64,000 nucleotides of DNA from an uncultured Thermotogae bacterium (lineage in GTDB: Bacteria > Bipolaricaulota > Bipolaricaulia > UBA7950 > UBA9294), in the NCBI GenBank assembly GCA_964466035.1, contig CAYXLR010000006.1, positions 28,918 to 92,917 on the forward strand, written 5' to 3'. Positions 3,419 through 61,204 of the stretch are shown in pieces. Made by a program: the position numbers and the translations under genes. Below the pieces are notes generated by a model that was given only the letters and a program-made list of their open reading frames with translations, did no database searches and was not told the origin of the DNA. Position 1 is the first letter of the stretch, and each line of letters starts with the position of its first letter.

Positions 3419-3518
3419 GTCGGCGCCATTGTACCGGTCGCCTGCGCCCCGCTCCAATCCGCGGCGCCCTTCCTGTCTCGATCGACGGCGATGGTGTACC
3501 ATCCGCCGCGGGGCGCAC

Positions 3519-40788: not shown

Positions 40789-40805
40789 GGAGGAACGGGG
40801 AGACC

Positions 40806-42149: not shown

Positions 42150-42159
42150 CGGACGGCCT

Positions 42160-44870: not shown

Positions 44871-45847
44871 CCGTTGAGATTCCCGACGTCAAGAAGAGCT
44901 GGCCGCATGCGATCAACGCCGTGACGATCGGCGCCACGTCCGCCGACGGAGGGACGCGGACATCGACCGTCACCATCGGGGGCGAGACGACGCTTCCCTT
45001 CTACCTTTTCGAAGGGGCGATGCCCAACCGCCCGGTCGTGGCGATGGAGGTCTGGGACGTCCCGGCCGGGGATTGGCCCGACGCCGTCCGGGAGCCGTTC
45101 GACGACGTCCTCGCCGATCCCGCCGCGTGGGCGAAGAAGTGCGTCGACGAGTTCGGCGCCGAGACGATCTGCCTCCGCTTGCAAGGGTGCGACCCGAACG
45201 GCGCGAACCGGTCCCCCGAGGAGGCCGCCGCGGCGGCGAAGGCGGTCGCCGAGGCCGTCGGCGTCCCGTTGATCGTTTGGGGGTGCGGAAGCGACGAGAA
45301 GGACAACGAAGTCTTCCCGCTCGTCGCCGAGGCCCTCTCCGGGGAGAACTGCCTCCTCGGGACGATCACCGAGGACAACTACAAGACCCTCACCGCGCTC
45401 GGCACGGCGTACGGGCACAAGCTGATCGCGGAGTCGCCGGTCGACATCAACATGGCGAAGCAGATCAACATCCTCGCGCTTGACGTCGGCTTTCTGGCCG
45501 AGAACCTCGTGATCTTCCCGAGCACCGGCGCCCTCGGCTACGGGCTCGAGTACGTCTACTCGATCATGGAGCGGCTCCGGATCGCCGGACTGAAGGGCGA
45601 CAAGGTCGTGGCGATGCCGATGCTCTGCGACATCGGGCTGGAGGTATGGGGCGCCAAGGAGGCCCGGGCGCCGGAAAGCGAGGTCCCCGGCTGGGGCGAC
45701 GTGACGTCTCGCGGCCCCCTGTGGGAGGCGGCGACGGCGACCGTCTACCTGCTCGCCGGGGCCGATCTGTTGATCCTTCGCCATCCCGAGGCGGTGCGGC
45801 TCACCCAAGGGACGATCGCACGGCTGATGGGAGGTGAGGCCGGGTGA
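44867..45847 (+). CDS. acsD: Corrinoid iron-sulfur protein small subunit
   Basis: IGGETTLPFYLFEG, AMEVWD, SPVDINMAKQ, ALGYGLEY, MERLR, WEAATA; GTG 44867. Confidence 0.95.
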   Translation: MTVEIPDVKKSWPHAINAVTIGATSADGGTRTSTVTIGGETTLPFYLFEGAMPNRPVVAMEVWDVPAGDWPDAVREPFDDVLADPAAWAKKCVDEFGAETICLRLQGCDPNGANRSPEEAAAAAKAVAEAVGVPLIVWGCGSDEKDNEVFPLVAEALSGENCLLGTITEDNYKTLTALGTAYGHKLIAESPVDINMAKQINILALDVGFLAENLVIFPSTGALGYGLEYVYSIMERLRIAGLKGDKVVAMPMLCDIGLEVWGAKEARAPESEVPGWGDVTSRGPLWEAATATVYLLAGADLLILRHPEAVRLTQGTIARLMGGEAG

Positions 45848-46635
45848 TCCTCATCGGGGAGCGGATCAACGCCGGGTTCAAGGACATCGCGAACGCCATC
45901 CGGACCAAGGATCCGACCGCGGTGGAGAAGTGGGCGGTGGCGCAGACCGAGGCCGGCGCGACCTACCTCGACGTCAACATCGGGGCGGCGTCGCGCGATC
46001 CGGCGGACATGGCGTGGCTCGTCGATGTCGTCCAAAAGGCCGTGCCGACGAAGATCTCGGTCGACTCGACGAAGATCGAGACGATCGAGGCCGGTCTCGA
46101 CGCGATCGACGGCCGCGGCGTCCTGATCAACTCCACGACCGCCGATCCGGGGAAGCTGGAGCGGATCGTGCCGCTCGCGGTCGAGCACAACGCGGCGCTG
46201 CTCGGCCTCGCGATGGACGACCGCGGCAGCCCGCAGAACGTCGATCGTCGAGTGGAGAACGGGGCGATGGTGTTCATGGCGGCGATGGAGGCCGGACTCG
46301 ACCCGGACCGGATCGTCCTCGATCCGATCCTCATGCCGCTCAAGTTCATGCAGGAGCAGGCGGGGTTCGTTCTCGAGGCGATCGAGCAGTACACCCACCT
46401 CTCCGATCCGCCGCCGCACATCTCCGTCGGGCTGTCCAACATCGGGTCGAAGGCGACCGAGCGGAGGCGGATCGTCCGCACGTTCCTCGTCATGGCGATG
46501 GCCCGCGGACTGGACGTGGCGATCTGCAACGTCTGCGACGAAGAGCTGATCGCCGCGGTGGCGACGGCCGAACTGGTCCTGAACAAGGAGATCTACTCCG
46601 ATTCGTACGTGCGCGCCTTCCAGGTGCGGCAGTAA
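45844..46635 (+). CDS. acsE: Methyltetrahydrofolate:corrinoid methyltransferase
   Basis: LIGERIN, YLDVNIG, LINSTT, LDP, GLSNI; pterin-binding TIM barrel. Confidence 0.92.
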   Translation: MILIGERINAGFKDIANAIRTKDPTAVEKWAVAQTEAGATYLDVNIGAASRDPADMAWLVDVVQKAVPTKISVDSTKIETIEAGLDAIDGRGVLINSTTADPGKLERIVPLAVEHNAALLGLAMDDRGSPQNVDRRVENGAMVFMAAMEAGLDPDRIVLDPILMPLKFMQEQAGFVLEAIEQYTHLSDPPPHISVGLSNIGSKATERRRIVRTFLVMAMARGLDVAICNVCDEELIAAVATAELVLNKEIYSDSYVRAFQVRQ

Positions 46636-46656
46636 CGGCAGGAAGGAGGAGGAACC

Positions 46657-48552
46657 GTGGCGAACGAGAAACCGCGCAGCATCGACAGGGCGTCGCTCGA
46701 GGTCCTCGAGGCGGACGAGGGCGCACACGAGACCGCATGGGATCGCTTGGACGCGATGCAGCCCCAGTGCACCTTCGGAGCGCAGGGGGTCTGCTGCCGG
46801 ATCTGCAGCATGGGGCCGTGTCGGATCATCCCCGGGAAGACCGACCGCGGCGTCTGCGGCGCCAACGTCGACACGATCGCCGCGCGGAACCTGGTCCGAA
46901 TGATCGCCGGCGGCGCGGCCGCCCACTCCGATCACGGTCGCGACGTCGCCCACGCGCTCCTCCTCGCGGCGCGAGACGAGTCGTGCGACTACGGGATCAA
47001 CGATCCAGTGAAGCTCCGGCAGGTCGCGGCAGCCTACGGGATCGGCCAGAACGGCGCGTCGGACCGAGAGATCGCGGTCGCCGTCGCCGAGCGGGCGCTC
47101 GCCGACTTCGGCCAGCAGGAGGGGGAGCTCGAGCTCGCGTTCCGCGCGCCGGAGAAGCGGGTCAAGCGGTGGAAGGCCGCCGGCGTCGTCCCCCGCGGCG
47201 TCGATCGCGAGATCGTCGAGATCATGCACCGCACCCACATGGGCGTCGACGCCGACTACAAGAACCTCATGCAGCAGGGGATCCGCTGCTCGCTCTCCGA
47301 CGGATGGGGCGGCTCGATGATCGCCACCGAGCTGCAGGACGTCCTGTTCGGGACGCCCTCCCCGATCCGGGGGAAGGTCAACCTCGGTGTGCTCGACGAG
47401 AAGCAGGTCAACTTCGTCGTGCACGGTCACGAGCCGGTCCTCTCCGAGATGGCCGTCGCGGCGGCGCAGGATCCCGAACTCCTCAAGCTCGCCGCCGAAG
47501 CCGGGGCGACCGGGATCAACGTCTCGGGCATGTGCTGCACAGCCAACGAGATCCTGATGCGACACGGCGTGCCGATCGCCGGGAACTTCCTCCAGCAGGA
47601 GCTCGCGATCATGACCGGGGCGGTCGATCTGATGATGGTCGACGTGCAGTGCATCATGCCCGCCCTTGCCGACCTCGTGAATCACTATCACACGAAGCTC
47701 ATCACGACCTCGCCGAAGGCGAAGTTCCCGGGGGTCGAGCACGTCGAGTTCCACGAGGAGAGGGCGCTGGAGATCGCCAAGACGATCGTTCGCATGGCGA
47801 TCGAGAACTACGGCCGTCGGGACCGAAAGCCGTTCATCCCCGACGAGACGATGGATCTGATCGGAGGGTTCACCGCCGAGTCCGTGTTCTCCTTCCTCGG
47901 AGGGACCTATCGATCGACGTACCGCCCGCTCAACGACGCGATCATCGACGGCCGGCTCCGCGGAGCGGCCGGGGTCGTCGGCTGCAACAACCCGAAGATC
48001 ACCCACGACTGGGCCCACGTCGAGATGGCGAAGGAGCTGATCCGAAACGACGTGTTGGTCGTCACGACCGGCTGCTCGGCGATCGCCGACGCCAAGCAAG
48101 GTCTGATGCGCCCGGAGATCGCGTTCGAGCTGGCTGGCGACGGTCTGAAGGAGATCTGTGAAACGGTCGGCATTCCGCCGGTCCTGCACGTCGGCTCGTG
48201 CGTCGACAACGCGCGGATCCTCATGGTGCTGACGAACATGGTCCACGAAGGCGGGCTGGGCGAGGACATCTCCGATCTCCCGGTCGCCGGTGCGGCGCCG
48301 GAATGGATGAGCGAGAAGGCGGTTTCGATCGGCTTCTACTTCGTCTCGTCCGGCGTGTTCACGACGCTCGGGATGCCGTTCCCGATCGAGGGATCGGAGA
48401 ACCTGACGCGGTACGTCACCGACGAGATCGAGGCGGACGTCGGAGGCAAGTTCGCCTTCGAGCCGGACCCGATCGCGGCCGCGCGCCTGATGATCGACCA
48501 CATCGACGCGAAGCGGGCGGCGCTCAAGCTGAAGGAGGTCATGTACGCCTGA
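46657..48552 (+). CDS. cooS: Anaerobic Ni-dependent carbon monoxide dehydrogenase catalytic subunit
   Basis: CTFG..GVCCRICSMGPC, AHSDH, HGHEP, GMCCTANE, DVQC, VGCNNP, TGC, GSCVDN, EWMSEKA: all B, C and D cluster ligands visible. Confidence 0.97.
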   Translation: MANEKPRSIDRASLEVLEADEGAHETAWDRLDAMQPQCTFGAQGVCCRICSMGPCRIIPGKTDRGVCGANVDTIAARNLVRMIAGGAAAHSDHGRDVAHALLLAARDESCDYGINDPVKLRQVAAAYGIGQNGASDREIAVAVAERALADFGQQEGELELAFRAPEKRVKRWKAAGVVPRGVDREIVEIMHRTHMGVDADYKNLMQQGIRCSLSDGWGGSMIATELQDVLFGTPSPIRGKVNLGVLDEKQVNFVVHGHEPVLSEMAVAAAQDPELLKLAAEAGATGINVSGMCCTANEILMRHGVPIAGNFLQQELAIMTGAVDLMMVDVQCIMPALADLVNHYHTKLITTSPKAKFPGVEHVEFHEERALEIAKTIVRMAIENYGRRDRKPFIPDETMDLIGGFTAESVFSFLGGTYRSTYRPLNDAIIDGRLRGAAGVVGCNNPKITHDWAHVEMAKELIRNDVLVVTTGCSAIADAKQGLMRPEIAFELAGDGLKEICETVGIPPVLHVGSCVDNARILMVLTNMVHEGGLGEDISDLPVAGAAPEWMSEKAVSIGFYFVSSGVFTTLGMPFPIEGSENLTRYVTDEIEADVGGKFAFEPDPIAAARLMIDHIDAKRAALKLKEVMYA

Positions 48553-48611
48553 AGCCCGGCGGAGGCCGAGGACGGAAACAACCACCGATTACGAGGGAGT
48601 AAGGAGGCAGT

Positions 48612-50381
48612 GTGGCAGGGAGTGTCCCATCCGATCTTGACATCGCACAGGCGGCAAAGCCGAAGCCGATCACGCAGATCGCGGAGAACCTCGGCATCCT
48701 CGAGGACGAGCTCGACCCGCACGGCAAGCTGAAGGCGAAGGTGAAGCTGTCGATCCTCGACCGGCTCGCCGATCGACCGAACGCCAAGTACATCGACGTC
48801 ACCGCGATCACGCCGACGCCGCTCGGCGAGGGAAAGTCGACGACGATGGTCGGGCTGACGCAGGCGCTCGGCAGCGTGCTCGGCAAGAACGTCATGTGCT
48901 GCATCCGCCAGCCGAGCATGGGGCCGACGTTCAACATCAAGGGCGGCGCCGCCGGCGGCGGCTACTCCCAGGTCGTCCCGATGGAGGACTTCAACCTCCA
49001 CCTGACCGGCGACATCCACGCGATCTCCGTCGCGCACAACCTCGTCGCCGCGGCGCTCGACACCCGGATGTTCCACGAGTCACGTCAGAGCGACGAGGCG
49101 CTCGCCAAGCGCGGCGTGAAGCGGCTCGACATCGACCCGGAGACGATTACGTGGCGCCGGGTCGTCGACATCTGCGACCGCTCCCTGCGCGAGATCCAGG
49201 TCGGGTTCAACGACGACAAGCTGAAGGACGGCTCGCCGAGCCCGGTGTTCCCCCGGGTGACCGGCTTCGACATCACCGTTTCCTCCGAGATCATGGCGAT
49301 CCTCGCCCTCGCGACCTCGCTCGCGGACATGCGGGAGCGGTTCGGCCGGATGGTCGTCGGCCTCGACAGGAAGGGGAATCCGGTCCACGTCGAGCAGCTC
49401 GGCGCCGCGGGCGCGGTGACGGTCCTGATGAAGGAAGCCCTCATGCCGACGCTGATGCAGACGCTCGAGGGTCAGCCGGCGTTCGTCCACGCCGGGCCGT
49501 TCGCCAACATCGCCCACGGGAACAGCTCGATCGTCGCCGACAAGATCGCCGTGAAGCTCGCCGACTACGTCGTGACGGAAAGCGGGTTCGGCGCCGACAT
49601 CGGGATGGAGAAGTTCTTCGACATCAAGTGCCGCACCTCCGGGCTGATCCCGAACGCCGTCGTCCTCGTCGCGACCGTCCGCGCCCTCAAGATGCACGGC
49701 GGCGGGCCGGCCGTGAAGCCGGGCGCGCCGCTCGACGAGGCGTACACGCAGGAGAACCTGCCGCTGCTCGAGAAGGGGCTGTGCAACCTCGGCGCGCACA
49801 TCCAAAACGCGCTCAAGTTCGGCATCCCGGTCGTCGTCGCCGTCAACGCGTTCCACACCGACACGCCGGCCGAGCTGGAGAGGATCCGCGAGTACTCGGT
49901 CGCCCAGGGCGCCGAGGACTCGGTCGTCACGACCCACTGGGCCGACGGCGGAAAGGGCGCCGGGAAGCTCGCCGAGGCGGTCGTCGCCGCCTGCGAGAAG
50001 CCGTCGAACTTCGACTTCCTGTACCCGCTCGATTGGTCGATCAAGGAGAAGATCGAGAAGATCTCGACCGACATCTACGGCGCGGACGGCGTCTCGTACG
50101 AGCCGCTCGCCGAGAAGCAGATCGCCGACTACGAGCGCGCCGGCTTCGGGAACCTGCCGATCTGCATGGCGAAGACCCACCTCTCCCTGTCGCACGACCC
50201 GAACCTGAAGGGCCAGCCGACCGGCTTCACCGTGCCGGTCCGCGAGGTCCGCGCCTCGGTCGGCGCCGGCTTCATCTACCCGTTGATCGGAACGATGAGC
50301 ACGATGCCCGGGCTCGCCACCCACCCCGCGTTCATGAGCATCGACATCGACGAGAACGGCGAGATCACCGGCCTGTTCTAG
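48612..50381 (+). CDS. fhs: Formate--tetrahydrofolate ligase
   Basis: [60 protein letters not shown]. Confidence 0.97.
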
Positions 50382-50407
50382 GTGGCGAGCGGGAGAAGGG
50401 AGCGTCG

Positions 50408-50881
50408 GTGTCGGAGCAATGGCCGCGTGTGCTGCGTGAGGAGATCGAGGAGGCCGCAGGACGGCCCGAGCGACTGATCCATGTCCTGCGGCGCGTCCAG
50501 GAGACCGTCGGCTTCATCTCTCCCGAGTCGGAGGCCATCGTCGCCGAGCGGCTCGGCGTGAAGATCGCTCGCGTTCACGGTGTCGTGACGTTCTACCATC
50601 TGTTCTACACCTCACCGCGCGGTCGGCACACGGTTCGCGTCTGCCAAGGCACGGCGTGCCACGTTGGCGGCGGCGACCGGATCCTCCGGGCGATCGAGGA
50701 CCGACTCGGCGTCACGCCCGGAGAGACGACCGACGATCTTGCCGTCACCCTAGAGACGGTCGCCTGCCTCGGCGCCTGTGCGCTGGCTCCGGTGATGGTC
50801 GTCGACGACGTCTACCACGGCCTGTTGACGCCGGATGAAGCCGTGGCGATCGTCGATCAAACGCTCGAGGAGGACGGATGA
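50408..50881 (+). CDS. NuoE/HydC-like [2Fe-2S] subunit of the formate dehydrogenase complex
   Basis: LIHVL..VQE..GFI, VHGVVTFY, VCQGTACH..CLGACALAP; GTG 50408. Confidence 0.92.
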   Translation: MSEQWPRVLREEIEEAAGRPERLIHVLRRVQETVGFISPESEAIVAERLGVKIARVHGVVTFYHLFYTSPRGRHTVRVCQGTACHVGGGDRILRAIEDRLGVTPGETTDDLAVTLETVACLGACALAPVMVVDDVYHGLLTPDEAVAIVDQTLEEDG

Positions 50882-52749
50882 CCGGGCGGATCACGACCCG
50901 CGAGCAACTCGACGCGCTCAAAGCGTACAACCTCAAGCGGCTCGCCTCCGTTGAGCAGCGGATCGCTGTTTGCAACGGCACCGGCTGTCGGGCGTGCGGG
51001 GGAGTCGAGGTGAAGGACGCCTTGGTCGCCGCCGTTGCATCGCACGGGCTCTCCGACCGGGTCGCGGTGATGCCGACTGGCTGTCAGGGGTACTGCCAGC
51101 GCGGTCCGCTCGTCACCGTGGAGCCGGCCGGGATCTTCTACCACGGCGTCAAGCCTGCCGATGCCGAGCGAATCGTCGCCGCAACGATCGAGCGAGGAGA
51201 ACTCGTCGACGACCTGCTTCTCGCCGATCCGGTCACCGGCGAGCGGATCCCGCGCCGCGACGAGGTCCGCTTCTACACCGGGCAGCAGCGAATCGTCTTC
51301 GCGCTGAACGGGAAGATCGACCCGGTGTCCATCGGAGACTACATCGCCCACGACGGCTACCAGGCCCTGGCGAAGGCGCTTCTCGACATGGGTCCGGAAT
51401 CGATCGTCGACGAGGTCCTTCGGGCCGGGCTGCGCGGACGCGGCGGTGCCGGGTTCCCGACCGGCCGCAAGTGGAAGTTCACTCGGGACGCGCCGGGCGA
51501 CGTCAAGGTCGTCGTCTGCAATGCCGATGAGGGCGATCCGGGCGCGTTCATGGACCGCTCGCTGATCGAGGCGACACCCCACGCCGTGCTCGAAGGGATG
51601 TTAATCGCCGCCCACGCGATCGGCGCGAGCCAAGGCTACGTCTACGTCCGTGCCGAGTACCCGCTCGCCGTCAAACACATCCGCAAGGCGATCGACGACG
51701 CTCGCTCCCTCGGCCTTATCGGGAAAGGCATCTTCGGCACCGACTTCTCGATCGACATCCATGTCATGGAAGGGGCGGGCGCGTTCGTCTGCGGCGAGGA
51801 GACGGCCCTGCTCCAATCGATCGAGGGCAAGCGCGGCATGCCGCGACCCCGACCGCCGTTTCCGGCCCAGTCCGGCCTGTGGGGCCGGCCGACGAACCTC
51901 AACAACGTGGAGACGTACGCCAACGTCCCGCCGATCATTCTCCGCGGTGCCGAGTGGTACGCGGGAATCGGAACAGAGACGAGCAAGGGGACCAAGATCT
52001 TCTCCCTCACGGGGAAGGTAGCGAACAATGGGCTCGTCGAGGTGCCGATGGGGACGACGCTGCGGCACATCATCTACGAAGTCGGCGGCGGGATGCGCGA
52101 CGGCCGGGAGTTTAAAGCGGCGCAGCTCGGGGGGCCGTCCGGCGGCTGTCTGCCAGCCGATCTCCTCGACGTACCGATCGACTACGAGTCACTCGGCGAG
52201 CACGGAGCGATCATGGGGTCGGGCGGGGTGATCGTCCTCGACGACACCGCGTGCATGGTCAGCATCGCCCGCTTCTTCCTCGACTTCACCGCGAGCGAGT
52301 CGTGCGGGAAGTGCGTTCCGTGTCGCGTCGGGATCCCGACGATGCGCGACATCCTCGTCCGGATCACCGAGGGGGAGGGGGAACCGGAGGACCTCGACCG
52401 GCTGCGGGAGCTGGCCGAACTCGTGAAGTCGTCGGCGCTGTGCGGCCTCGGCCAGACGGCGCCGAACCCGGTCCTGTCGACCCTCCGCTACTTCGAGGAC
52501 GAGTATCGGGCGCACATCGAGGATCGGATCTGCCCGTCCGGCGTCTGCGAGGCGCTTGCCCCACCGTACCGGATCGATCCGGAGGCGTGCAAGGCGTGCG
52601 ACCAGTGCGCCAAGGTCTGTCCGACCGGTGCGGCGCGCGGCACGCCGGGCGAGCCGCCGTACGAGATCGACGAGCAGCTGTGCATCCGATGCGGCGCCTG
52701 CTACAAGGCCTGCCCGTTCGACGCCGTGACGAGGGGGGCCCGATCATGA
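50878..52749 (+). CDS. NuoF/HydB-like FMN/NAD-binding subunit with extra Fe-S domains
   Basis: N-terminal Trx-like [2Fe-2S] (CNGTGC..CQGYC), GLRGRGGAGFP, NADEGDPGAFMDR, GAFVCGEETAL, ESCGKCVPCR, LCGLG, C-terminal 2x[4Fe-4S]. Confidence 0.93.
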   Translation: MTGRITTREQLDALKAYNLKRLASVEQRIAVCNGTGCRACGGVEVKDALVAAVASHGLSDRVAVMPTGCQGYCQRGPLVTVEPAGIFYHGVKPADAERIVAATIERGELVDDLLLADPVTGERIPRRDEVRFYTGQQRIVFALNGKIDPVSIGDYIAHDGYQALAKALLDMGPESIVDEVLRAGLRGRGGAGFPTGRKWKFTRDAPGDVKVVVCNADEGDPGAFMDRSLIEATPHAVLEGMLIAAHAIGASQGYVYVRAEYPLAVKHIRKAIDDARSLGLIGKGIFGTDFSIDIHVMEGAGAFVCGEETALLQSIEGKRGMPRPRPPFPAQSGLWGRPTNLNNVETYANVPPIILRGAEWYAGIGTETSKGTKIFSLTGKVANNGLVEVPMGTTLRHIIYEVGGGMRDGREFKAAQLGGPSGGCLPADLLDVPIDYESLGEHGAIMGSGGVIVLDDTACMVSIARFFLDFTASESCGKCVPCRVGIPTMRDILVRITEGEGEPEDLDRLRELAELVKSSALCGLGQTAPNPVLSTLRYFEDEYRAHIEDRICPSGVCEALAPPYRIDPEACKACDQCAKVCPTGAARGTPGEPPYEIDEQLCIRCGACYKACPFDAVTRGARS

Positions 52750-55442
52750 CCGAAGGCGTTTCGATCACGATCGACGGCCGGCCCGTCGAGGCGCGGGCCG
52801 GGGAGACCGTCCTCGCCGTCGCCCGGCGGCACGGCATCGACATCCCCGGTCTCTGCTACCATCCGCGGCTGACGCCGACCGGCGGCTGCCGGCTCTGCCT
52901 CGTGAAGATCGACGGTCGGCCCGGGACGACGACCGCGTGCACGCTCGAGGCGACGGAGGGGCTGTCGATCACCGCGTTCGACGACGAGCTCGAGGCCGAG
53001 CGGCGCGGGCTGATCGAGCTCCTGCTCGCCGAGCACAACTGCGATTGCGTCGTCTGCGAGTCGGCCGGCCGCTGTGAGCTCCAGGACCTCGCCTACCGCT
53101 ACGGCCTCGACCAGCGAACGCGCCGATACCGGTTCCCGCCGCGCGATCTCCCCGACGAGGACGCCTCCTCGCCGGTCCTCGTGTACGACCCGAGCAAGTG
53201 CATCCTCTGCGAGCGGTGCGTCAAGGCGTGCGACGAGATCCAGGGGAAGGCGATCCTCTCCTACGCCTTCCGAGGACTCGACGCCGTCGTCACCGCCGGC
53301 CCGGGCGGCTGGGGCGCCTCCGATTGCGACGGCTGCGGCGAGTGCGTCCAGCTCTGCCCGACCGGGGCGATCCGCGAGAAGCTCGACGTCCGACCGCCGC
53401 GGCACTGGGAGCTGAGGCCGGTGCACACGACCTGCTCGTACTGCGGCGTCGGCTGCCGGCTCGACCTGTGGGTCCACGACGGACGGATCGTCAACGTCAC
53501 CGGCGCGGACGCGGTCCCCAACTTCGGCTCGACCTGCGTCAAGGGGCGGTTCGGCCACACGTACGTCCAGGCCGAGGACCGTCTGACCCGGCCGCTGATC
53601 CGGCGGGACGGCGCGCTCGTCGAGGCGACGTGGGACGAGGCGCTCGACGAGGTCGCCCGGCGGCTGAACGAGATCGTGGCCGAGCACGGACCCGACGCGA
53701 TCGGCGGCTTGTCTTCGGCGACGTGCACCAACGAGGAGAACTACCTGTTCCAGAAGCTCCTGCGCGCCTGCGTCGGGACGAACAACGTCGATCACTGCGC
53801 CCGCCTCTGCCACGCGTCGACCGTCGCCGGGCTCGCCGCCGCGTTCGGCTCCGGCGCGATGACGAACTCGATCGCCGAGCTAGAGTTCGCCGACTGCCTC
53901 CTCGTCACCGGCTCGAACACGACCGAGACCCACCCGGTCATCGCCAACCTGATCGTGCGGGCCGTCCGGTACCACAGCGCGAAGCTGATCGTCGTCGACC
54001 CCCGGCGGATCGACCTCGTCAAGCACGCGGCCCTCTGGCTGCGACAACGCAACGGCACCGACGTCGCCTGGATCAACGGGATGATGTCCGTCATCCTGTC
54101 GGAGGGGCTGCACGACGAAGCGTTCGTCGCCGAGCGCACCGAGGCGTTCGACGCGCTCCGCGCCGTTCTCGATCGCTTCACCGTCGACGACGCGGCGCGG
54201 ATCTCCGGCATCCCGTCCGAACAGCTCGCCGCGGCCGCCCGCATGTACGCCGGCGCCGAACGCGCTGCGATCGTCTACGCGATGGGGATCACCCAGCACA
54301 CGCACGGGACGGACAACGTCCTCTCGCTCGCCAACCTGGCGATGCTCACCGGGTCCGTCGGGAAACCATCGTCCGGCGTCAATCCGCTGCGCGGTCAGAA
54401 CAACGTGCAGGGCGCGTGCGACCTCGGCGCCCTCCCGAACGTCTACCCCGGGTACCAGCCGGTCACCGACCCCGACGTCCGGGCGAAGTTCGAGTCGGCG
54501 TGGGGCGTCGGCCTCCCGCCGGACGTAGGTCTCACGGTCGTCGAGATGATGCACGCGGCGGCCGATGGGCGCGTCAAAGGCATGATCATCATGGGCGAGA
54601 ACCCGATGATCTCCGACCCGAACCTGAACCACGTCGAGGAGGCTCTGAGGGCGCTCGACTTCCTCGTCGTGCAGGACGTCTTCCTCACCGAGACGGCGCA
54701 GCTCGCCGACGTCGTCCTCCCCGCCGCGTCGTTCGCCGAGACGAACGGGACGTTCACCAACACCGAGCGGCGCGTGCTGCCCGTCCGCCGGGCGATCGAC
54801 CCGCCCGGCGAGGCGCGGCCGGACTGGGAGATCCTGTGCGACCTGTCGACCCGCATGGGCTACCCGATGCGCTATCCCGACGCCGCGGCGATCATGGACG
54901 AGATCGCGTCGGTCTCGCCGATCTACGGCGGGATCCATCACCGCAGGCTCGAGCCGGCCGGCCTGCAATGGCCGTGCCCGTCCGACGACCACCCCGGAAC
55001 CGTCTTCCTCCACGAGGGGACGTTCCGCCGCGGGCTCGGCCGGTTCCACGCCGTCGAGTACACCCCGTCGGCCGAGCTCCCCGACGACGAGTACCCGTTC
55101 GTCCTGTCGACCGGCCGGATCCTCCAGCACTTCCACACCGGCTCGATGAGCCGCCGGTCCGGCGCGTTGAACGCCTACGGGAACGAGCCGTACGCCGAGA
55201 TCCATCCGGACGACCTCGCAACGCTCGGCGTCGAGGACGGGGGGAAGGTCCGCGTCGCGACGCGCCGCGGCGAGATCGTCACGAACGCCCGCGCGGCGGA
55301 GCGCGTCGCCCCCGGTTCGGTGTTCATCCCGTTTCACTTCGTCGAAGCCGCAGCGAACCGGTTGACCAACGACGCCCTCGACCCGAAGGCGAAGATCCCC
55401 GAGCTGAAGGTCGCCGCCTGCCGGATCGAACGGGTAGATTGA
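52746..55442 (+). CDS. fdhF: Mo/W formate dehydrogenase alpha subunit, Cys form, fused to HydA-like Fe-S domains
   Basis: [2Fe-2S], H-ligated and 2x[4Fe-4S] modules, then TCSYCGVGC..CVKG, DHCARLCHAST (Cys, not Sec), PLRGQNNVQG, IPELKVAAC; ATG 52746. Confidence 0.94.
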   Translation: MTEGVSITIDGRPVEARAGETVLAVARRHGIDIPGLCYHPRLTPTGGCRLCLVKIDGRPGTTTACTLEATEGLSITAFDDELEAERRGLIELLLAEHNCDCVVCESAGRCELQDLAYRYGLDQRTRRYRFPPRDLPDEDASSPVLVYDPSKCILCERCVKACDEIQGKAILSYAFRGLDAVVTAGPGGWGASDCDGCGECVQLCPTGAIREKLDVRPPRHWELRPVHTTCSYCGVGCRLDLWVHDGRIVNVTGADAVPNFGSTCVKGRFGHTYVQAEDRLTRPLIRRDGALVEATWDEALDEVARRLNEIVAEHGPDAIGGLSSATCTNEENYLFQKLLRACVGTNNVDHCARLCHASTVAGLAAAFGSGAMTNSIAELEFADCLLVTGSNTTETHPVIANLIVRAVRYHSAKLIVVDPRRIDLVKHAALWLRQRNGTDVAWINGMMSVILSEGLHDEAFVAERTEAFDALRAVLDRFTVDDAARISGIPSEQLAAAARMYAGAERAAIVYAMGITQHTHGTDNVLSLANLAMLTGSVGKPSSGVNPLRGQNNVQGACDLGALPNVYPGYQPVTDPDVRAKFESAWGVGLPPDVGLTVVEMMHAAADGRVKGMIIMGENPMISDPNLNHVEEALRALDFLVVQDVFLTETAQLADVVLPAASFAETNGTFTNTERRVLPVRRAIDPPGEARPDWEILCDLSTRMGYPMRYPDAAAIMDEIASVSPIYGGIHHRRLEPAGLQWPCPSDDHPGTVFLHEGTFRRGLGRFHAVEYTPSAELPDDEYPFVLSTGRILQHFHTGSMSRRSGALNAYGNEPYAEIHPDDLATLGVEDGGKVRVATRRGEIVTNARAAERVAPGSVFIPFHFVEAAANRLTNDALDPKAKIPELKVAACRIERVD

Positions 55443-55455
55443 CTCCCACAAGCAT

Positions 55456-55703
55456 TCACCGCAGAGGACGCAGAGAGACGCAGAGAGAAGCCCTGGGAAG
55501 AGGATCACCATGAAGGACATGAAGGGGAGAACCACACCCATCCTCTCGCAGAGGCGCGGAGAACGCTGAGAAAAGCTCAGGAGGGTTCTTCCCTCTCCCC
55601 TAGCGGGAGAGGGTCAGGGTGAGGAGGTCTGGCGACCTTCGGCGGCGAGTCATCATCTTCTATCCTCTTGTACGGTCAGATGCTGACTCTGCGCTCTCCG
55701 CGG
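55456..55703. repeat. Composite REP-like repeat, copy A (left boundary of the island)
   Basis: Modules CCGCAGAGGACGCAGAG, CACCATGAAGGACATGAAG, CGCAGAGGCGCGGAGAACGCTGAG, hairpin CCCTCTCCC-N5-GGGAGAGGG-TCAGGGTGAGG, and inverted arm CTCTGCGCTCTCCGCGG; collinear with copy B at offset 2629-2630. Confidence 0.9.
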
Positions 55704-55918
55704 ACATGCCGTTGCGTTATTCGCTCTCCATCGGCAGGATGGAAAGGGCGCAAGTCCGCAGTGCCGAGGGGATGAGTCGAGCGAGGGCACACGATCGGCA
55801 GCATTCGGTGGATGGGTCTCCAGCAGGGTAACCGACTGGCAGTGCGAGAACTTCTCTCTCCAGTAGCCACGGACTGTCCCTGGGAGCCGCAGACGAGCCG
55901 CGGCACGCTGTACTCCCC

Positions 55919-55947
55919 TTGACATAGAGGTTTTCTTCAGGTATTAT
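55919..55947 (+). promoter_or_regulatory. Strong sigma70-type promoter of the peptide/C39 cassette
   Basis: TTGACA-17 nt-TATTAT. Confidence 0.75.
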
Positions 55948-55973
55948 ACGATATCTCATGCAGCAAGGGGGTA

Positions 55974-56348
55974 GTGATGCTCCGACTGCGGTTCATCCTT
56001 GTGTGTCTGTTGGTTTGTGCCTGTGCGATTCCGCTCAGGGTAGCCGCAACTTCTGATCCCGTCCTCGCGGGCGAGCCCTTCTCTGTGCCGCTGCCGGCCG
56101 GACGAGAGCTCGCCGACGATGAACTTCTCGAAGTCGAGGGAGAGCTCGTCTGGTTCGTCGGACTTCTCATCATCGCTGTCGCATCAGGAGTGGGTGCCGG
56201 AGGCGGTATGGCCGTCCATGAGAACTGGTTCGATGAGGACTACGGCATCGACGGCGACGATTGGGGAAACATAGGACTGGTTGCGGGCTGCACCTTCGGC
56301 GGAGTCTTGACTGGTGGCATTGCCACACACTACGTCGGGCCGATGTAG
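55974..56348 (+). CDS. Secreted peptide precursor: signal peptide, double-glycine-like leader and Gly-rich hydrophobic core
   Basis: MLRLRFILVCLLVCACAIPLRVAA signal; ELADDELLEVEG(E) leader-like motif; core with GxxxG helices flanking an Asp-rich loop. Confidence 0.7.
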   Translation: MMLRLRFILVCLLVCACAIPLRVAATSDPVLAGEPFSVPLPAGRELADDELLEVEGELVWFVGLLIIAVASGVGAGGGMAVHENWFDEDYGIDGDDWGNIGLVAGCTFGGVLTGGIATHYVGPM

Positions 56349-56376
56349 GCTGCCGCTGCTCCTACCTTCAGACACC

Positions 56377-56610
56377 ATGGCTGATAGGAGAACACGCTTC
56401 CAACCAGGGCTGACTTCCATCTTCTCATTCGTGATCGTGGCATTCGTTTTGCCCGGAGTGTACGGTGCAATCACTGGCTCTGCTCCGCCCGCTCCGTGGC
56501 AGATGGGATCATGGGCAATCTGGATTGCATTCTGCGTGGGAGTCTTTCTGTTCGGATACGCCGTGACCAAGGTAGTACTGCGCTTGCTGGAGCGGAGGGA
56601 GCACCGATAG
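56377..56610 (+). CDS. Small two-TM membrane protein (77 aa), possible immunity or accessory factor
   Basis: Two hydrophobic segments with basic termini; lies between the precursor and the peptidase in the same orientation. Confidence 0.55.
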   Translation: MADRRTRFQPGLTSIFSFVIVAFVLPGVYGAITGSAPPAPWQMGSWAIWIAFCVGVFLFGYAVTKVVLRLLERREHR

Positions 56611-56644
56611 GTACACACCCCAGAGCGGCAATTGCTAGATAGAG

Positions 56645-57328
56645 ATGACAGCCGGAATGCGGCGGATCGCCGAGAAGGCGCAGTGGTTTCTCTGTCTTGC
56701 TGTTGTCGGTTTTGCCGGCTGCATACTACAGCATCCACAGGCTTCGGGGTCGAATGCCGCAGTGTCATTCCGCGACTTGAGGTATCAAGGCGCTATCGCG
56801 CAAACCAGCGACTACTCCTGCGGAGCGGCGGCCACGGCTTGCCTCCTCGACACGTACTATGGGATCCCCACAACGGAGGCCGAGATTCTTGAGCTGGCAG
56901 AGCGGCAGATGTCTGCTCGCGGCGAGGAGTCAGGGCTTGCGCATGGTCTCACGGCCTACGATCTGAAGACCGCATCCGAAGCTCTGGGCCTCGACATGGC
57001 AGGATACGAGCTCACACACGCTCAGCTACAGGACTACTTCGAGCGAGGCGGTCTACCCTTGATCGCACACGTGACCCAGCCGCGAGCACACTACCTTGTC
57101 GTAGTTGGGATGACCACTCAGCATGTCCTGCTATCGGATCCCGCATGGGGGCGCTACGTCGCGCCTGCACGTGAGCTCGCTGATGCCCGTGGCATGAGTG
57201 GCGTGTTCCTTGTTCCCCTGCCGACCATGGAGGAGGCTCTACACGCGCGGGGGATCCAGGCATCTGCTCTGGAATGGATGCGAAATCGAGTCCTCCAGTT
57301 GTCGGATCTACGCGAGGCCATGCTGTGA
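56645..57328 (+). CDS. Stand-alone secreted C39 cysteine peptidase (FapD-like)
   Basis: Hydrophobic N-terminal signal; SFRDLRYQGAIAQTSDYSCGAAA (Q, C), PLIAHV..AHYLVV (H), LLSDPAWG (D); no ABC or TM domains. Confidence 0.88.
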   Translation: MTAGMRRIAEKAQWFLCLAVVGFAGCILQHPQASGSNAAVSFRDLRYQGAIAQTSDYSCGAAATACLLDTYYGIPTTEAEILELAERQMSARGEESGLAHGLTAYDLKTASEALGLDMAGYELTHAQLQDYFERGGLPLIAHVTQPRAHYLVVVGMTTQHVLLSDPAWGRYVAPARELADARGMSGVFLVPLPTMEEALHARGIQASALEWMRNRVLQLSDLREAML

Positions 57329-58107
57329 GAGCCGCCGTCCTTCTCCTCCTGATAGGTCTGTCTTGGTTCGTGGTGGGAGGTGCTCAGACGCCAGCATTCG
57401 ATCCCCTCCGCCTCGCAGAAGACACCAACGAAGCACAGATCTCGTGGGACGTATCGCTGGCGTACCACCCACAAGGAAGCACCGGGGCTGGGTATGATGA
57501 CCTCGGTCAGTTCTACACGTTTGTGAGATTCATTGATCAATGGCAGTCGAGCGTTTCGATGTCCTGGTCCTTCAGCCCGTGCCACAAGCTGGGAACGGCT
57601 CTGACCCAGAGCACTACCACCCTCTACGAACGACGCCTGTACGAGTCATCCGAGTCGGAGGAAACGTATACCAGCAGAGACTTCTCGTACTCAAGCTACT
57701 ACGAGTATCGCATCGCCCCGGACAGCCCGCTCGATCCTCGTCTCCGCCTGTCATATCGATCCCCTTCGTGGTTTGGACTTGCTGCATCCGTCAGCCGGAT
57801 ACTTGATCCTGTGGTTCTGACGGCAATGGTCGGGTTTTTGCACAAGCATCAAAGACCACTCAACTGGGTCGACCTCTCGCTGAGTGCAGGATTGGTTGCA
57901 AACTCCAGAGTGACCTTCACTGTGTCCAGTGGAATGGCCGTTCCAGTACAGGATGCCGGTCTGCCGTCTGCATCGGTCGGTCTCTGCGCTCGCTACTCGC
58001 GCAATCCAAGTGGAGGTCTCCAGCTCTCTGTGCAGGCCACCCTGCACATGCAAGGGCAGTCCTCCTGGATCGCTCCGTCATTGTCGATCCGAGGGCGGCA
58101 TCCCTAG
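57325..58107 (+). CDS. Putative outer-membrane beta-barrel transporter (FapF-like)
   Basis: GTG overlaps the peptidase stop; signal peptide; alternating amphipathic strands rich in S/T/Y/W; SRILDPVVL..VGF and LSAGLVANSRVTF resemble FapF DPxVL and G-x-x-N strand motifs. Confidence 0.55.
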   Translation: MRAAVLLLLIGLSWFVVGGAQTPAFDPLRLAEDTNEAQISWDVSLAYHPQGSTGAGYDDLGQFYTFVRFIDQWQSSVSMSWSFSPCHKLGTALTQSTTTLYERRLYESSESEETYTSRDFSYSSYYEYRIAPDSPLDPRLRLSYRSPSWFGLAASVSRILDPVVLTAMVGFLHKHQRPLNWVDLSLSAGLVANSRVTFTVSSGMAVPVQDAGLPSASVGLCARYSRNPSGGLQLSVQATLHMQGQSSWIAPSLSIRGRHP

Positions 58108-58125
58108 AGAGGAACTCAGAGACCT

Positions 58126-58332
58126 CCACCATGAAGACCATCAAGGTCACGAAGAGGAAGACCAACCCCATTCTCGCGCAGAGGCGCGGAGAACGCTGAG
58201 AAAAGCTCAGAACGGTTCTGCCCTCTCCCCTGGTGGGAGAGGGTCAGGGTGAGGGGAGGAATCCTTCGACATCGAGGTGGCTTTCCCCGTATTCTCTTGT
58301 ACAGTCAGATGCTGACTCCGTGCTCTCTGTGG
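58126..58332. repeat. Composite REP-like repeat, copy B (right boundary of the island)
   Basis: 58177-58210 is identical to 55547-55580 (34 nt); 58294-58318 matches 55665-55689 at 24/25; same CCCTCTCCC/GGGAGAGGG hairpin. Confidence 0.9.
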
Positions 58333-58371
58333 CCCAGCGAGAGAAAGGACTTCGGCGTCTGGGAGGCTGAG

Positions 58372-59076
58372 GTGGAAACAACCGAGCGGGTACCGATCCA
58401 GCGTGTAGAAGGCGGGAACGTCGAGGCGGTCGACGACACGCTCGTCGCGGAGGCGAGCGTCGCGATCGCGCTCCGCGGCGACGAGCTGATCCGCGCTGTC
58501 TGCTCGCCCGGTCATCTGCGGGAATGGGCGATCGGGTACCTGTTCTCCGAGGGGTACATCACACGGCCGGACGATGTCGAAGAGATCCGTGAGAGCGACG
58601 GCGTCCTCACGATCGACCTGGTGCCCTCGGCGCCCGCGGAGCCCGCGGCGCTTCTCCCGGTGGAGAGCGACCGCTGCGCGACGCCCGAGCGGATCCTCGC
58701 CGTCGCACGCGAGGCAGTCGACAAGGCGGAGGTCTTCAAGCAGACCGGCGGGACCCACGCGGCGGCGATCGCTGACGAGTCGGGCATCGTCGCCTTCGTC
58801 GAGGACATCAGCCGCGCCTGCGCGCTCGAGAAGGCAATCGGGACCGCGCTGGAACAGCGCGCAGACTTCAGCCGCTCGCTCGCTTTCCTCTCGTCTCGCG
58901 TCCCGTCCCGGATGCTCGCGAAGCTCGCGCGGAGTGGCGTCCCGATCGTCGCCGCCGTGTCCGCTCCGACGATCGACGCCGTTCGGCTCGCCGAGGCGCT
59001 GAACGTCTGCCTCTGCGGCTTCGTCCGCGGAGAGCGACTGAACTTCTACGCCCACGGATGGAGGGTTGGGCTGTGA
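58372..59076 (+). CDS. fdhD: Formate dehydrogenase accessory sulfurtransferase FdhD
   Basis: SPGHLREWAIGYLFSEG, FKQTGGTHAAA, SAPT, CGFVRG; GTG 58372 after GGAGG. Confidence 0.88.
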   Translation: METTERVPIQRVEGGNVEAVDDTLVAEASVAIALRGDELIRAVCSPGHLREWAIGYLFSEGYITRPDDVEEIRESDGVLTIDLVPSAPAEPAALLPVESDRCATPERILAVAREAVDKAEVFKQTGGTHAAAIADESGIVAFVEDISRACALEKAIGTALEQRADFSRSLAFLSSRVPSRMLAKLARSGVPIVAAVSAPTIDAVRLAEALNVCLCGFVRGERLNFYAHGWRVGL

Positions 59077-59657: not shown

Positions 59658-59897
59658 GAGTAGCCTATACACAAGCGCGAACCAGAGGCCTACTCTGCCT
59701 GTTTGAAAACCTAGAATGCTTTTGAACGCCGGTGTGCAAGAAGCTTTGTGTGTGGAAACCTGAAGCTTATTGAACGGTCCGCCGTGTCGACCGTGCTCTG
59801 GTGCAGACGGGCCTTGTACTGCAGACCGAGTACATAGGCTTATGTGTCTTCGCGCTAATTCCTCCGTATAAGCCAAGAGAAGGGAAGAATCGAAGAC

Positions 59898-60308
59898 GTG
59901 GCCAGGAAGAAGGCCGAGAACGCAACCCCTTACGCAAGTGTGCGAATCGACGGTGAGCAGTACACCTGTTGGGATAACGCTCTCATCTCGAAGCTCGAAT
60001 CCGGATAAGAGGTTGACTACCAGCGGGAGCAGTCGCGCAAGTTCAAGAAGATCATCGACATCGAGCCGGCACTCGACGACTCTCACCTGTCTTCGAAGGA
60101 TCTCTGCGTCGTTCGGATGAGCGCCTTGCGATCCGCGTCGTACTCGGAGATAGGCCTGGACCTCCCCCATCGAGTAAAAACGCCGTACGGCGTTGGAGAC
60201 ACCACGGGCCTTCGGAGAACACGTCTTGTGGCCCAATCCATCTGTGTCGTGCGATTGCTGTCCATTGGGCGTTGTCCAGCTCTCTACGGGGGAGAACGCA
60301 GCCCGTAG
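59898..60308 (+). pseudogene. Probable pseudogene of a small OB-fold-like protein, in-frame TAA at 60006-60008
   Basis: GTG after AAGGGA; MARKKAENATPYASVRIDGEQYTCWDNALISKLESG*EVDYQREQSRKFKKIIDIE reads as continuous protein-like sequence across a single stop; low-GC patch. Confidence 0.45.
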
Positions 60309-60454
60309 GCCGCCGGGACCGGAGACTGTGGGACACACGCGCAGGCCCGGACGGCACGGCTCGCCAGCTTGTTCTGCCCTCGATGCATCCCTACGTGGGG
60401 CACCCGAGAACGAACAGCGAGCTCTCAGTTACGGCTGGTGCTGCCGGCATCCCA

Positions 60455-60475
60455 GTTCGAATCCCCCAGGCTCCA
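60455..60475 (+). other. tRNA-Ala/tmRNA-like 3' fragment (possible att-site scar)
   Basis: GTTCGAATCCCCCAGGCTCCA matches a T-loop, 3' T-stem and Ala-type acceptor strand, with no matching 5' T-stem upstream. Confidence 0.4.
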
Positions 60476-60718
60476 ATGCCGCCATGGGAGCAGCCAGTCA
60501 CGACTTCAGTGTGATCAAACGCGCGTCGCTCGTGCGTTCACCGTGAGGCCATCACGTACCGCTAGGCACCTTCCAGGCCCCAAAAGGCATGCCATCAGGA
60601 GCTATGCCGGTTGTCGCTCTGACCTTGCCTCCGGGCTCGAAAGAAGTGAGAATGGGCGTGGCATCCCCAAAGTGTTAAGTAATACTGAAGAAGGTCCGAC
60701 GGGAAGGCAAGGAGGACG

Positions 60719-61204
60719 ATGGAACTCCGACTAACACTGAACGGCGAACCCGTAGCTGTCGAAGTGGATCCATGCACGCGGCTGATCGACCTTCTCCGCG
60801 ACAAGCTCAACGCGAAGAGCGTCAAGGAGGGCTGCGGAGAGGGCGAGTGCGGGGCCTGTACCGTCCTTCTCGACGGCGAGCCGGCCTACGCGTGTCTGGT
60901 CCTCGCGGCCCAAGCGGACGGTTCGCGGATCACGACCGTGGAGGGCCTGTCGAAGGATGGCGAACTCCACCCCGTGCAACGTGCGTTCGCCGAGACCGGG
61001 GCCGTGCAGTGCGGGTTTTGCACGCCCGGATTCATCATCGCGACCGTCGCCCTCCTCGACAGGAATCCGCGTCCAAGCAACGACGAGATCAGAGACGCTC
61101 TCGCGGGACACCTGTGTCGCTGCACTGGGTATCGAAAGATCATGGACGCCGTCCACCGAGCGGCCGATCTGACGGCGTCGCCAAGCGTGGGAGCGGGGCG
61201 ATGA
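60719..61204 (+). CDS. Xanthine dehydrogenase/CoxS-family [2Fe-2S] small subunit
   Basis: GCGEGECGACTV..CLV, QCGFCTPG, HLCRCTGY. Confidence 0.93.
   Translation: MELRLTLNGEPVAVEVDPCTRLIDLLRDKLNAKSVKEGCGEGECGACTVLLDGEPAYACLVLAAQADGSRITTVEGLSKDGELHPVQRAFAETGAVQCGFCTPGFIIATVALLDRNPRPSNDEIRDALAGHLCRCTGYRKIMDAVHRAADLTASPSVGAGR

Follow-up and report, generated by a model that had tools for sequence, protein, structure and literature searches.

An internal double-glycine-type leader behind a Sec signal: a candidate bacteriocin-like cassette with its own C39 peptidase and beta-barrel in an uncultured Thermotogae-labelled bacterium

A short gene at positions 55974..56348 (forward strand) of a 64,000-nucleotide stretch of contig CAYXLR010000006.1 (assembly GCA_964466035.1, an uncultured Thermotogae bacterium; this whole stretch is called the window below) raises the question of why a protein that begins with a Sec-type signal peptide should carry a second leader, of the double-glycine type, behind it. 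In the textbook view, both double-glycine leaders and C39 peptidases belong to cytoplasmic export that is coupled to ATP-binding cassette (ABC) transporters. The initial annotation recognized the tandem layout, with a leader ending in G-E, and suggested that the acidic core might be an atypical anionic pore-former, a metal (calcium)-binding hairpin, or a self-assembling fibre or envelope subunit that is processed twice. In the present work, we reconstruct the gene cassette headed by this precursor and its relatives, and we lean towards the reading that the precursor is a bacteriocin-like peptide or polymorphic toxin with an immunity gene, exported by Sec, a periplasmic C39 peptidase, and a FapF-like barrel.

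The precursor gene is present in the sequence as first described, as a 124-codon open reading frame (ORF) from GTG. The database copy, P0001, has 123 residues and is 100% identical; it and all homologues start at ATG 55977, which is probably the real start rather than GTG 55974. The gene and its upstream signals consist of the following elements:

55919..55947, forward strand: near-consensus sigma-70-type promoter candidate upstream of the precursor (TTGACA, 17 nucleotides, TATTAT)
55965-55971, forward strand: Shine-Dalgarno-like AAGGGGG, 5' of the precursor
55974..56048, forward strand: Sec-type signal peptide MMLRLRFILVCLLVCACAIPLRVAA, residues 1-25, with a basic N-terminus, a hydrophobic stretch, and V-A-A at the putative cleavage site
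56049..56144, forward strand: pro-region with the double-glycine-type leader TSDPVLAGEPFSVPLPAGRELADDELLEVEGE, residues 26-57, predicted to be cleaved after G56-E57
56145..56216, forward strand: core helix 1 LVWFVGLLIIAVASGVGAGGGMAV, residues 58-81, variable among homologues (mean pairwise identity 0.45)
56217..56264, forward strand: acidic-aromatic turn HENWFDEDYGIDGDDW, residues 82-97, conserved (mean pairwise identity 0.85)
56265..56348, forward strand: core helix 2 GNIGLVAGCTFGGVLTGGIATHYVGPM, residues 98-124, and the stop codon; variable (identity 0.40), with three GxxxG motifs

The promoter candidate agrees with 11 of 12 consensus positions, 0.8 such matches being expected in shuffled sequences, and is a match to the consensus only. 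An N-terminal signal-like segment is found in all family members and mostly ends in AxA. An interpretation of the precursor as a lipoprotein (VCAC) was rejected: the cysteine residues are not kept in distant members, whose sites are of the AxA type. The pro-region of 32 residues is acidic and ends in PLPAGRELADDELLEVEGE (LADDELLEVEG-E), and the motif ELADDELLEVEG-E occupies residues 45-57 of the precursor.

The leader was then followed through the family. A word-indexed search returned 26 homologues with 40-100% identity, all of them metagenomic; of 1.84 billion representative proteins searched with a profile, 45 matched at E up to 0.001, several of them long. Six long matches (P0063, P0075, P0066, P0071, P0074, and P0086) were excluded from the family set on length; P0063 and P0075 were rejected as relatives, their sequences when read being those of unrelated repeat proteins. 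All 63 of the 63 short family members align to the leader profile, and 60 of their leaders are unique. Seven positions (P41, D48, E50, L51, G56, W85, and E88) do not vary in the alignment of the 26 homologues, and L52, V54, and E55 of the leader reach at least 90% conservation there; when distant members are compared, only leader columns attain this level. The 60 unique leaders have Pro at P17 (57 leaders), Gly at P15 (57), Leu or Met at P12 (56), Asp at P10 (55), Glu at P8 (55), Leu at P7 (59), Val at P4 (42, the others being Thr, Ala, or Ile), and Gly at P2 (59), and P11 is Ser, Gly, Ala, or Thr in family leaders. When the ORFs of the 64-kb window are searched in all six frames, a profile of the leader only matches a single one (E 9e-11); because of this single match and the retention of the motif in relatives, we consider the motif to be beyond chance.

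The classical consensus of double-glycine leaders is LSxxELxxIxGG (PMC1538908). With Gly56 placed at P2, the window leader coincides with it at six positions, namely P12 (L46), P11 (A47), P8 (E50), P7 (L51), P4 (V54), and P2 (G56). The family departs from this class at P1, where Gly, Ala, or Ser is usual: P1 of the 60 unique leaders is Glu in 53, Asp in 4, and Gln or Lys in 3, and none has Gly, Ala, or Ser. Canonical G-A is found in the identical register in the Thermus aquaticus and Acinetobacter relatives described below. The assignment of Glu57 as P1 is drawn from the register and these G-A relatives, and the cut may also fall after Gly56. A distant member, P0082, passes the NCBIfam model of class IIb bacteriocins, TIGR03949, over the leader and early core (24.6 bits vs. 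the cutoff of 21.5); this model matches 5 of 35 family members, 4 of them below the cutoff, and PF10439 matches one member at 4e-4. The proposed tandem layout, a double-glycine leader pattern ending in G-E behind a Sec signal, is thus borne out and conserved across the family, and the EL..EL..VEG motif is kept both in the 26 close homologues and in the 63 short members, contrary to the refuting condition set in the initial annotation, a lack of its conservation among homologues.

A candidate enzyme for this leader is encoded nearby. The precursor heads a four-gene, same-strand cassette, in which a C39 leader peptidase, unnoticed in the initial annotation, lies two genes downstream of the precursor and supports the reading of a tandem leader. 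The three genes that follow the precursor are:

56377..56610, forward strand: 77-residue two-helix membrane protein with basic ends, in the immunity position; two hydrophobic helices
56645..57328, forward strand (database start 56657): C39 cysteine peptidase with a signal segment, possibly a lipoprotein (FAGC)
57325..58107, forward strand: 260-residue, signal-peptide-bearing protein modelled as a 12-strand beta-barrel, beginning at a GTG in a 4-nucleotide overlap with the C39 stop

The peptidase matches Pfam Peptidase_C39 at 1e-17 (64.7 bits vs. the cutoff of 22), and its catalytic set is intact, with Gln53, Cys59, His149, and Asp165 invariant in 13 homologues. It is a separate protein of 223-227 residues with its own signal segment. 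Its best NCBIfam matches are FapD (41.7 bits, cutoff 330) and FilB (37.4 bits), both far under their cutoffs. Past the C39 domain, residues ~195-227 (57230-57325) form a conserved C-terminal helix of about 30 residues (Q..L.WM..RL.QL..LRE) with which the barrel or the cargo may interact. The AlphaFold2 (AF2) model of the barrel has 12 strands, with a predicted local distance difference test score (pLDDT) of 77 and residues 15-30 below 50; in a Foldseek search against the PDB, the top 17 matches are all FapF (E 1e-9, template modelling score 0.54-0.64). Searches with the barrel sequence found no relative, either by profile against PDB sequences, Pfam, and NCBIfam or by tblastn against plasmids. 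The 77-residue protein has no family match in Pfam and NCBIfam. None of the four cassette proteins matches a PADLOC defence model, no ABC transporter is present in the cassettes, and no relative was found in viral contigs.

Comparison of the cassettes revealed a constant and an exchangeable part. Linkage was determined by scans with hidden Markov models of 28 loci and the window, three further loci (L029-L031) being scanned afterwards. The order precursor, small protein, C39 peptidase, and barrel is found in 13 loci of the former set; in the close family, the barrel is always immediately preceded by the peptidase, and the small protein follows the precursor in every close cassette. Orphan pairs of precursor and small protein without peptidase and barrel are present in two loci (L007 and L009), an extra precursor gene stands after a barrel in L012 and in L028, with a small protein behind it in L012 (the contig of L028 ends before that point), and an Anaerolineae-labelled metagenome-assembled genome carries a reshuffled version of the same genes. 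Spearman correlations of pairwise identities, calculated for nine distinct but non-independent cassettes and thus a small sample, show that leader identity tracks that of the C39 peptidase (rho 0.81) and the barrel (0.74), whereas the identity of the core helices does not (-0.26 to 0.07); the small protein is likewise uncoupled from the C39 peptidase (0.04). The mean pairwise identities are 0.69 for the leader, 0.40 for the small protein, 0.61 for the C39 peptidase, and 0.48 for the barrel, beside the values for turn and helices given above. Mosaicism is also seen in the cores: P0008 equals P0003 up to and through the acidic turn and equals P0025 beyond it, which implies recombination at the conserved turn. 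The immunity slot, directly 3' of the cargo, is always filled, and by five unrelated gene types: two-helix proteins of 63-97 residues, a membrane protein of ~150 residues, a CPBP protein, DUF4279, and a 117-residue protein. The leader, peptidase, and barrel are constant, and the core and small protein appear to be exchanged as modules. In one locus (L030, 4968-6742), a C39-like protein and a barrel-like protein (barrel profile 3e-11) lie beside Wzz/GNVR and a ParA-type tyrosine kinase, and no leader-bearing cargo was detected near the pair; from this locus, the peptidase-barrel pair may serve other cargos.

The same module boundary is visible in cultured bacteria. In a tblastn search of plasmids, the best relatives of the peptidase are in Deinococcus and Thermus, with 34-40% identity. 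In Deinococcus sp. NW-56 (L033), the gene order is 'polymorphic toxin type 33', DUF4279, C39, and 'outer membrane beta-barrel protein', and the cargo consists of a signal peptide, a leader ending in LSDAELDEVKGE / NLPQALSDAELDEVKGE, a hydrophobic helix, and an Ntox33 domain (Pfam, 82 bits). The cargo of Deinococcus sp. D7000 (L034) has a signal peptide, a leader ending in NLPQVLSDEELDGVTGE, and a Gly-rich hairpin, and is followed by a 63-residue two-helix protein. The two strains share flanking genes, with 76% identical C39 peptidases and 66% identical barrels; their cargos share 52% identity as far as G-E and no homology beyond it, and the genes next to them in the immunity position differ. 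The Deinococcus homologue of the barrel passes the Pfam OMP_b-brl cutoff. Both Deinococcus loci also encode, upstream, a histidine kinase and a response regulator in divergent orientation, and downstream they share three hypothetical genes and an S41 peptidase. These genes, not present in the window, may have a regulatory role or belong to the system as additional components.

In Thermus, plasmid pTA16 of T. aquaticus (L032) contains an unannotated 99-residue ORF (2920-3219) with a signal peptide, a leader ending in ITADELAETHGA, and a hydrophobic core, which is followed by a CPBP/Abi-type intramembrane protease, C39, and a barrel. CPBP/Abi-type proteins belong to a family implicated in bacteriocin immunity. 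T. oshimai JL-2 has a C39 peptidase and a barrel identical to the pTA16 proteins after a CPBP gene. On the T. thermophilus SNM1-7 plasmid (L035), a gene at 3057-3446 encodes a signal peptide, a leader ending in LSEEALAEYEGK, and a core, and is followed by genes for a 151-residue membrane protein, C39, and a barrel. Both the pTA16 and the SNM1-7 cargo genes are unannotated in the public records, though they lie directly 5' of annotated cassette genes.

Two further plasmids carry related arrangements. That of Acinetobacter sp. SAAs474 (L037, 1023-4103), a gammaproteobacterial version of the Thermus and Deinococcus layout, encodes a barrel, two cargos with a signal peptide and LELSRQEMKDTQGA, and a signal-bearing C39 peptidase; one of the cargos has a C-terminal His-rich domain and the other is Gly-rich, with a 117-residue gene between them. 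On the plasmid of Croceicoccus marinus (L036, 1890-6154), a lipoprotein-type C39 peptidase stands beside a secreted protein with D/N/S repeats, a 414-residue barrel 'transporter', and two small proteins with a signal peptide and LSEEVLARQRGG / SEDALQATAGR motifs. The Croceicoccus cargo looks more Fap-like, yet it shares the principle of an internal leader.

The core of the window precursor fits the description given in the initial annotation. Its 67 residues include no Lys or Arg, 7 Asp or Glu, 2 His, and 24% Gly (pI ~4.05, charge ~-7), and two GxxxG-rich hydrophobic segments (G72 and G74 in the first; G101, G105, and G110 in the second) surround an Asp-rich loop. The AF2 model, built on the family alignment with an overall pLDDT of 83, predicts a signal helix (2-25), a disordered region (26-47), and a single long helix (48-86, pLDDT above 90) in which the leader continues into hydrophobic segment 1; a turn (87-93) connects it to another helix (94-121), so that the core forms a helical hairpin. 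A fold search with the precursor against the PDB gave nothing at E up to 0.001, helical hairpins being uninformative in this respect. Helix 1 scores ~0 kcal/mol on a crude biological scale of hydrophobicity, similar to the membrane helix of the adjoining small protein (-0.16), and helix 2 is weakly hydrophobic (+2.9). In the turn, N84, F86, D87, D89-D93, and D95-W97 are at least 90% conserved beside the invariant W85 and E88; this acidic turn is limited to one subfamily and missing from distant family members. Calcium-binding patterns (DxDxDG, EF-hand, and RTX) were looked for in the precursor by eye only, and none was recognized.

Across the family, the core charge varies from -7 to +11, and the cores differ in sequence as well. 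Among diderm bacteria, class II microcins are for the most part hydrophobic and rich in Gly, with a neutral or anionic character (PMC10233263). The contrast 'acidic, not cationic' in the initial annotation was drawn from class II bacteriocins of Gram-positive bacteria and does not hold as an anomaly; the acidic core is a subfamily trait that is ordinary for microcins, and its composition is microcin-like. Among the three functions suggested there, that of an antibacterial peptide acting on membranes agrees best with the observations; what falls is its being atypical for its charge. We favor the antibacterial reading because the small membrane protein appears to change with the core and because the leader carries a toxin domain in Deinococcus.

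The route that we propose for the window cargo is as follows: (i) a strong promoter would drive the operon; (ii) the N-terminal signal peptide would route the precursor via Sec, and signal peptidase would remove residues 1-25; (iii) the adjoining periplasmic, possibly lipid-anchored C39 peptidase would recognize the pro-region helix (L-x-D-x-E-L-L-x-V-E-G-E) and cut after Gly56-Glu57; (iv) the FapF-like 12-strand barrel would carry the cargo over the outer membrane, cleavage being placed before export in this order; (v) the released 6.8-kDa Gly-rich helical hairpin would act as a membrane-active antibacterial peptide against neighboring cells; and (vi) the 77-residue two-helix protein would shield the producer. 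Double processing, by signal peptidase and then by the C39 peptidase, is the likely course. More tentatively, and with reservations, we put forward the possibility that the cassette represents an unrecognized two-step toxin secretion route (Sec, a periplasmic C39 leader peptidase, and a FapF-like barrel), which would be common to Deinococcota, Thermotogae- and Anaerolineae-labelled uncultured lineages, and some Proteobacteria, and whose leader would keep Gly at P2 and tolerate Glu, Asp, Gln, Lys, or Ala at P1.

Several observations weigh against the antibacterial reading and the proposed route. The precursor protein matches no bacteriocin or toxin model in Pfam and NCBIfam at E up to 1, PF10439 (Bacteriocin_IIc) and TIGR03949 included. 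Glu at P1 is not known to be accepted by any characterized C39 peptidase, which leaves the exact cut site uncertain. Helix 1 could be hydrophobic enough to stop transfer in the inner membrane of the producer, and the acidic turn is conserved more strongly than a simple pore-former would suggest. The likeness of the barrel to FapF is one of fold only, its model having neither plug helix nor coiled-coil domain. The outer-membrane step depends on the envelope of the host, and the relatives of the cassette are labelled Thermotogae, Anaerolineae, and Deinococcota. Finally, the core helices correlate weakly with the small protein (rho 0.26-0.30, from the nine non-independent cassettes).

The first alternative is that the hairpin is a building block of the surface or matrix, exported in a Fap-like manner and self-assembling into fibres or an envelope layer like FapB or FapC. 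Gly/Ala-rich hydrophobic stretches are prone to aggregation, and the Croceicoccus locus pairs a similar C39 peptidase with a D/N/S-repeat protein. The closest matches of the machinery, FapD as the best NCBIfam model and FapF as the best fold, belong to exporters of amyloid subunits (PMC5557850). We nevertheless regard this alternative as rather unlikely: imperfect Q/N-rich repeats are absent and AF2 predicts the helical hairpin with confidence, a structural subunit would not usually be as hypervariable and mosaic as these cores, every core is paired with a membrane protein of its own, the leader carries Ntox33 in Deinococcus, and equivalents of FapA, FapB, and FapE are not present in the four-gene cassette. 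Since at least one class II microcin kills and also forms amyloid fibres (PMC13188072), killing and fibre roles can coexist.

Quite unlikely, in our view, is a second alternative, that of a resident inner-membrane hairpin. Helix 1 would stop transfer, the C39 peptidase would just trim a periplasmic pro-piece, the acidic-aromatic turn would serve to bind either a partner or a cation, the small protein would act as a subunit, and the barrel would have some other function. In agreement with this scheme are the hydrophobicity of helix 1, matching that of the neighbor's membrane helix, the predicted cut site that abuts helix 1, the possible lipid anchor of the peptidase (FAGC), and the turn, which is conserved more than any other part of the core (0.85). 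The scheme leaves unexplained why the barrel should be an obligatory partner with translational coupling to the peptidase, as well as the hypervariable helices, the orphan pairs, and the Deinococcus Ntox33 cargo with its cytoplasmic-type partner, and the turn on which it draws is wholly missing in distant family members. A third alternative, a secreted pheromone that, like ComC or BlpC, would derive from a precursor with a double-glycine-type leader and would be sensed by a two-component system, is most improbable: double-glycine leaders mark peptide pheromones too, and a divergent histidine kinase and response regulator adjoin the cassette in both Deinococcus loci, but a 67-residue hydrophobic hairpin is unlike known pheromones, neither the surroundings of the window cassette nor most metagenomic loci contain a kinase or regulator, and the Ntox33 cargo and the immunity-slot genes indicate antagonism.

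The candidate antibacterial cassette is set apart from its surroundings in the window. It forms a compositional island (55500-58250), with a GC content of ~0.58-0.60 vs. ~0.70 and a GC content at third codon positions of ~0.66 vs. 0.85-0.95 in the flanking genes, as might result from horizontal acquisition. The cassette is located in the fdhA-fdhD interval, with one copy of a direct repeat on each side:

55507..55703, no strand assigned: left copy (~200 nucleotides; native fdhA-fdhD intergenic sequence), 86-87% identical to the right copy
58137..58332, no strand assigned: right copy, overlapping the 5' end of fdhD (58249..59076)

The repeat has just these two copies in the window, spaced by 2630 nucleotides, and includes a hairpin, CCCTCTCCCC..GGGAGAGGG; the left part is common to the fdhA-fdhD spacer of locus L001. 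The repeats suggest an insertion or duplication at the fdhA-fdhD site. As RNA, the flanking repeats and the cassette gave nothing at the gathering score in Rfam, the only match with E below 1 being a chance one to a long noncoding RNA. A functional tie of the cassette to formate dehydrogenase was considered and rejected: in relatives, the cassette occurs on either side of fdhD-mobA, including after this pair, and elsewhere in unrelated contexts.

Upstream of the cassette, positions 38569-55442 encode a Wood-Ljungdahl set: acetyl-CoA synthase/carbon monoxide dehydrogenase (CODH) beta (38569-40788), RACo (42160-44109), CODH/prismane (46657-48552), formate-tetrahydrofolate ligase (48612-50381), a Nuo51-type subunit (50878-52749), and formate dehydrogenase alpha (to 55442). 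The fdhD and mobA genes follow the cassette, 3' of the Wood-Ljungdahl genes. From this gene content, the host looks like an acetogen-type bacterium. Between mobA and a CoxS-like gene, a region of ~1.1 kb (59660-60720) has a lower GC content (0.52-0.62), no convincing ORF, and no Rfam match. At 16097-19021, a GH57 glycoside hydrolase is fused to an SLH-like glucodextranase C-terminal module, i.e., it is a cell-surface-anchored enzyme, and this fusion may be informative about the kind of envelope that the host has.

If the proposed route holds, its significance is severalfold. The occurrence of a periplasmic C39 peptidase beside a clear leader-bearing cargo yields a testable substrate rule, Gly at P2 and a charged residue at P1, and would predict the type of site cut by FapD-type periplasmic C39 peptidases, which has been open since 2017. 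A compact module of four genes could move small hydrophobic peptides or toxin domains over two membranes without ATP-driven transporters, and this module is present in the genetically tractable Thermus and Deinococcus. It would also add a trafficking mode to polymorphic toxin systems and place bacteriocin-like warfare genes in deep-branching, uncultured acetogen-type bacteria. The arrangement is not described in the open-access full-text literature searched, in which the phrase 'periplasmic C39' occurs only in the FapF paper (PMC5557850) and FapD is the sole characterized C39 peptidase of the periplasm.

Among known systems, the Fap system of Pseudomonas offers the first comparison; there, FapD is a periplasmic C39 peptidase whose target the FapF paper gives as unknown, and FapF is a 12-strand outer-membrane barrel (PMC5557850). 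Shared with it are Sec signals on all components, a separate C39 peptidase that is periplasmic and intact in its active site, a barrel modelled with 12 strands, and substrates that are thought to be N-terminally processed at Gly-containing sites. The cassette differs from Fap in that (i) membership is lacking at the sequence level, the peptidase scoring far below the FapD cutoff and the barrel having no sequence match, (ii) amyloid-repeat subunits, FapA, and FapE are absent, and the barrel model has no coiled-coil or plug, (iii) the cargo is a small hypervariable hairpin or toxin domain accompanied by a gene in the immunity position, and (iv) the leader is obvious, in contrast to the target of FapD.

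The class II microcins and class IIb double-glycine bacteriocins, which use peptidase-containing ABC transporters as exporters (TIGR03949, PF10439), share with the cassette the leader register, the presence of a C39 peptidase, a Gly-rich, hydrophobic, anionic mature peptide under 10 kDa, an adjoining small membrane gene of the immunity type, and a conserved leader with a variable core; one distant family member passes TIGR03949. In contrast to them, the cassette leader is internal, behind a 25-residue Sec signal, and has Glu, Asp, Gln, or Lys at P1; there is no ABC transporter or membrane-fusion protein, the C39 peptidase is separate and exported, and the barrel takes the place of TolC.

In common with polymorphic toxins, a constant N-terminal trafficking region is joined to exchangeable C-terminal modules, each with a following gene, orphan cassettes occur, and at one locus two Deinococcus strains differ only by their pair of cargo and immunity gene, one of the cargos being Ntox33. 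The survey of Zhang et al. 2012 (PMC3482391) lists Ntox33 under the type II secretion system (Sec), with no protease or immunity. The cargo of the window differs from such toxins by having no C-terminal toxin domain recognized in Pfam and NCBIfam scans, and the combination of signal peptide, leader, and hydrophobic helix with a C39 peptidase and a barrel is absent from the trafficking modes of the survey (PMC3482391).

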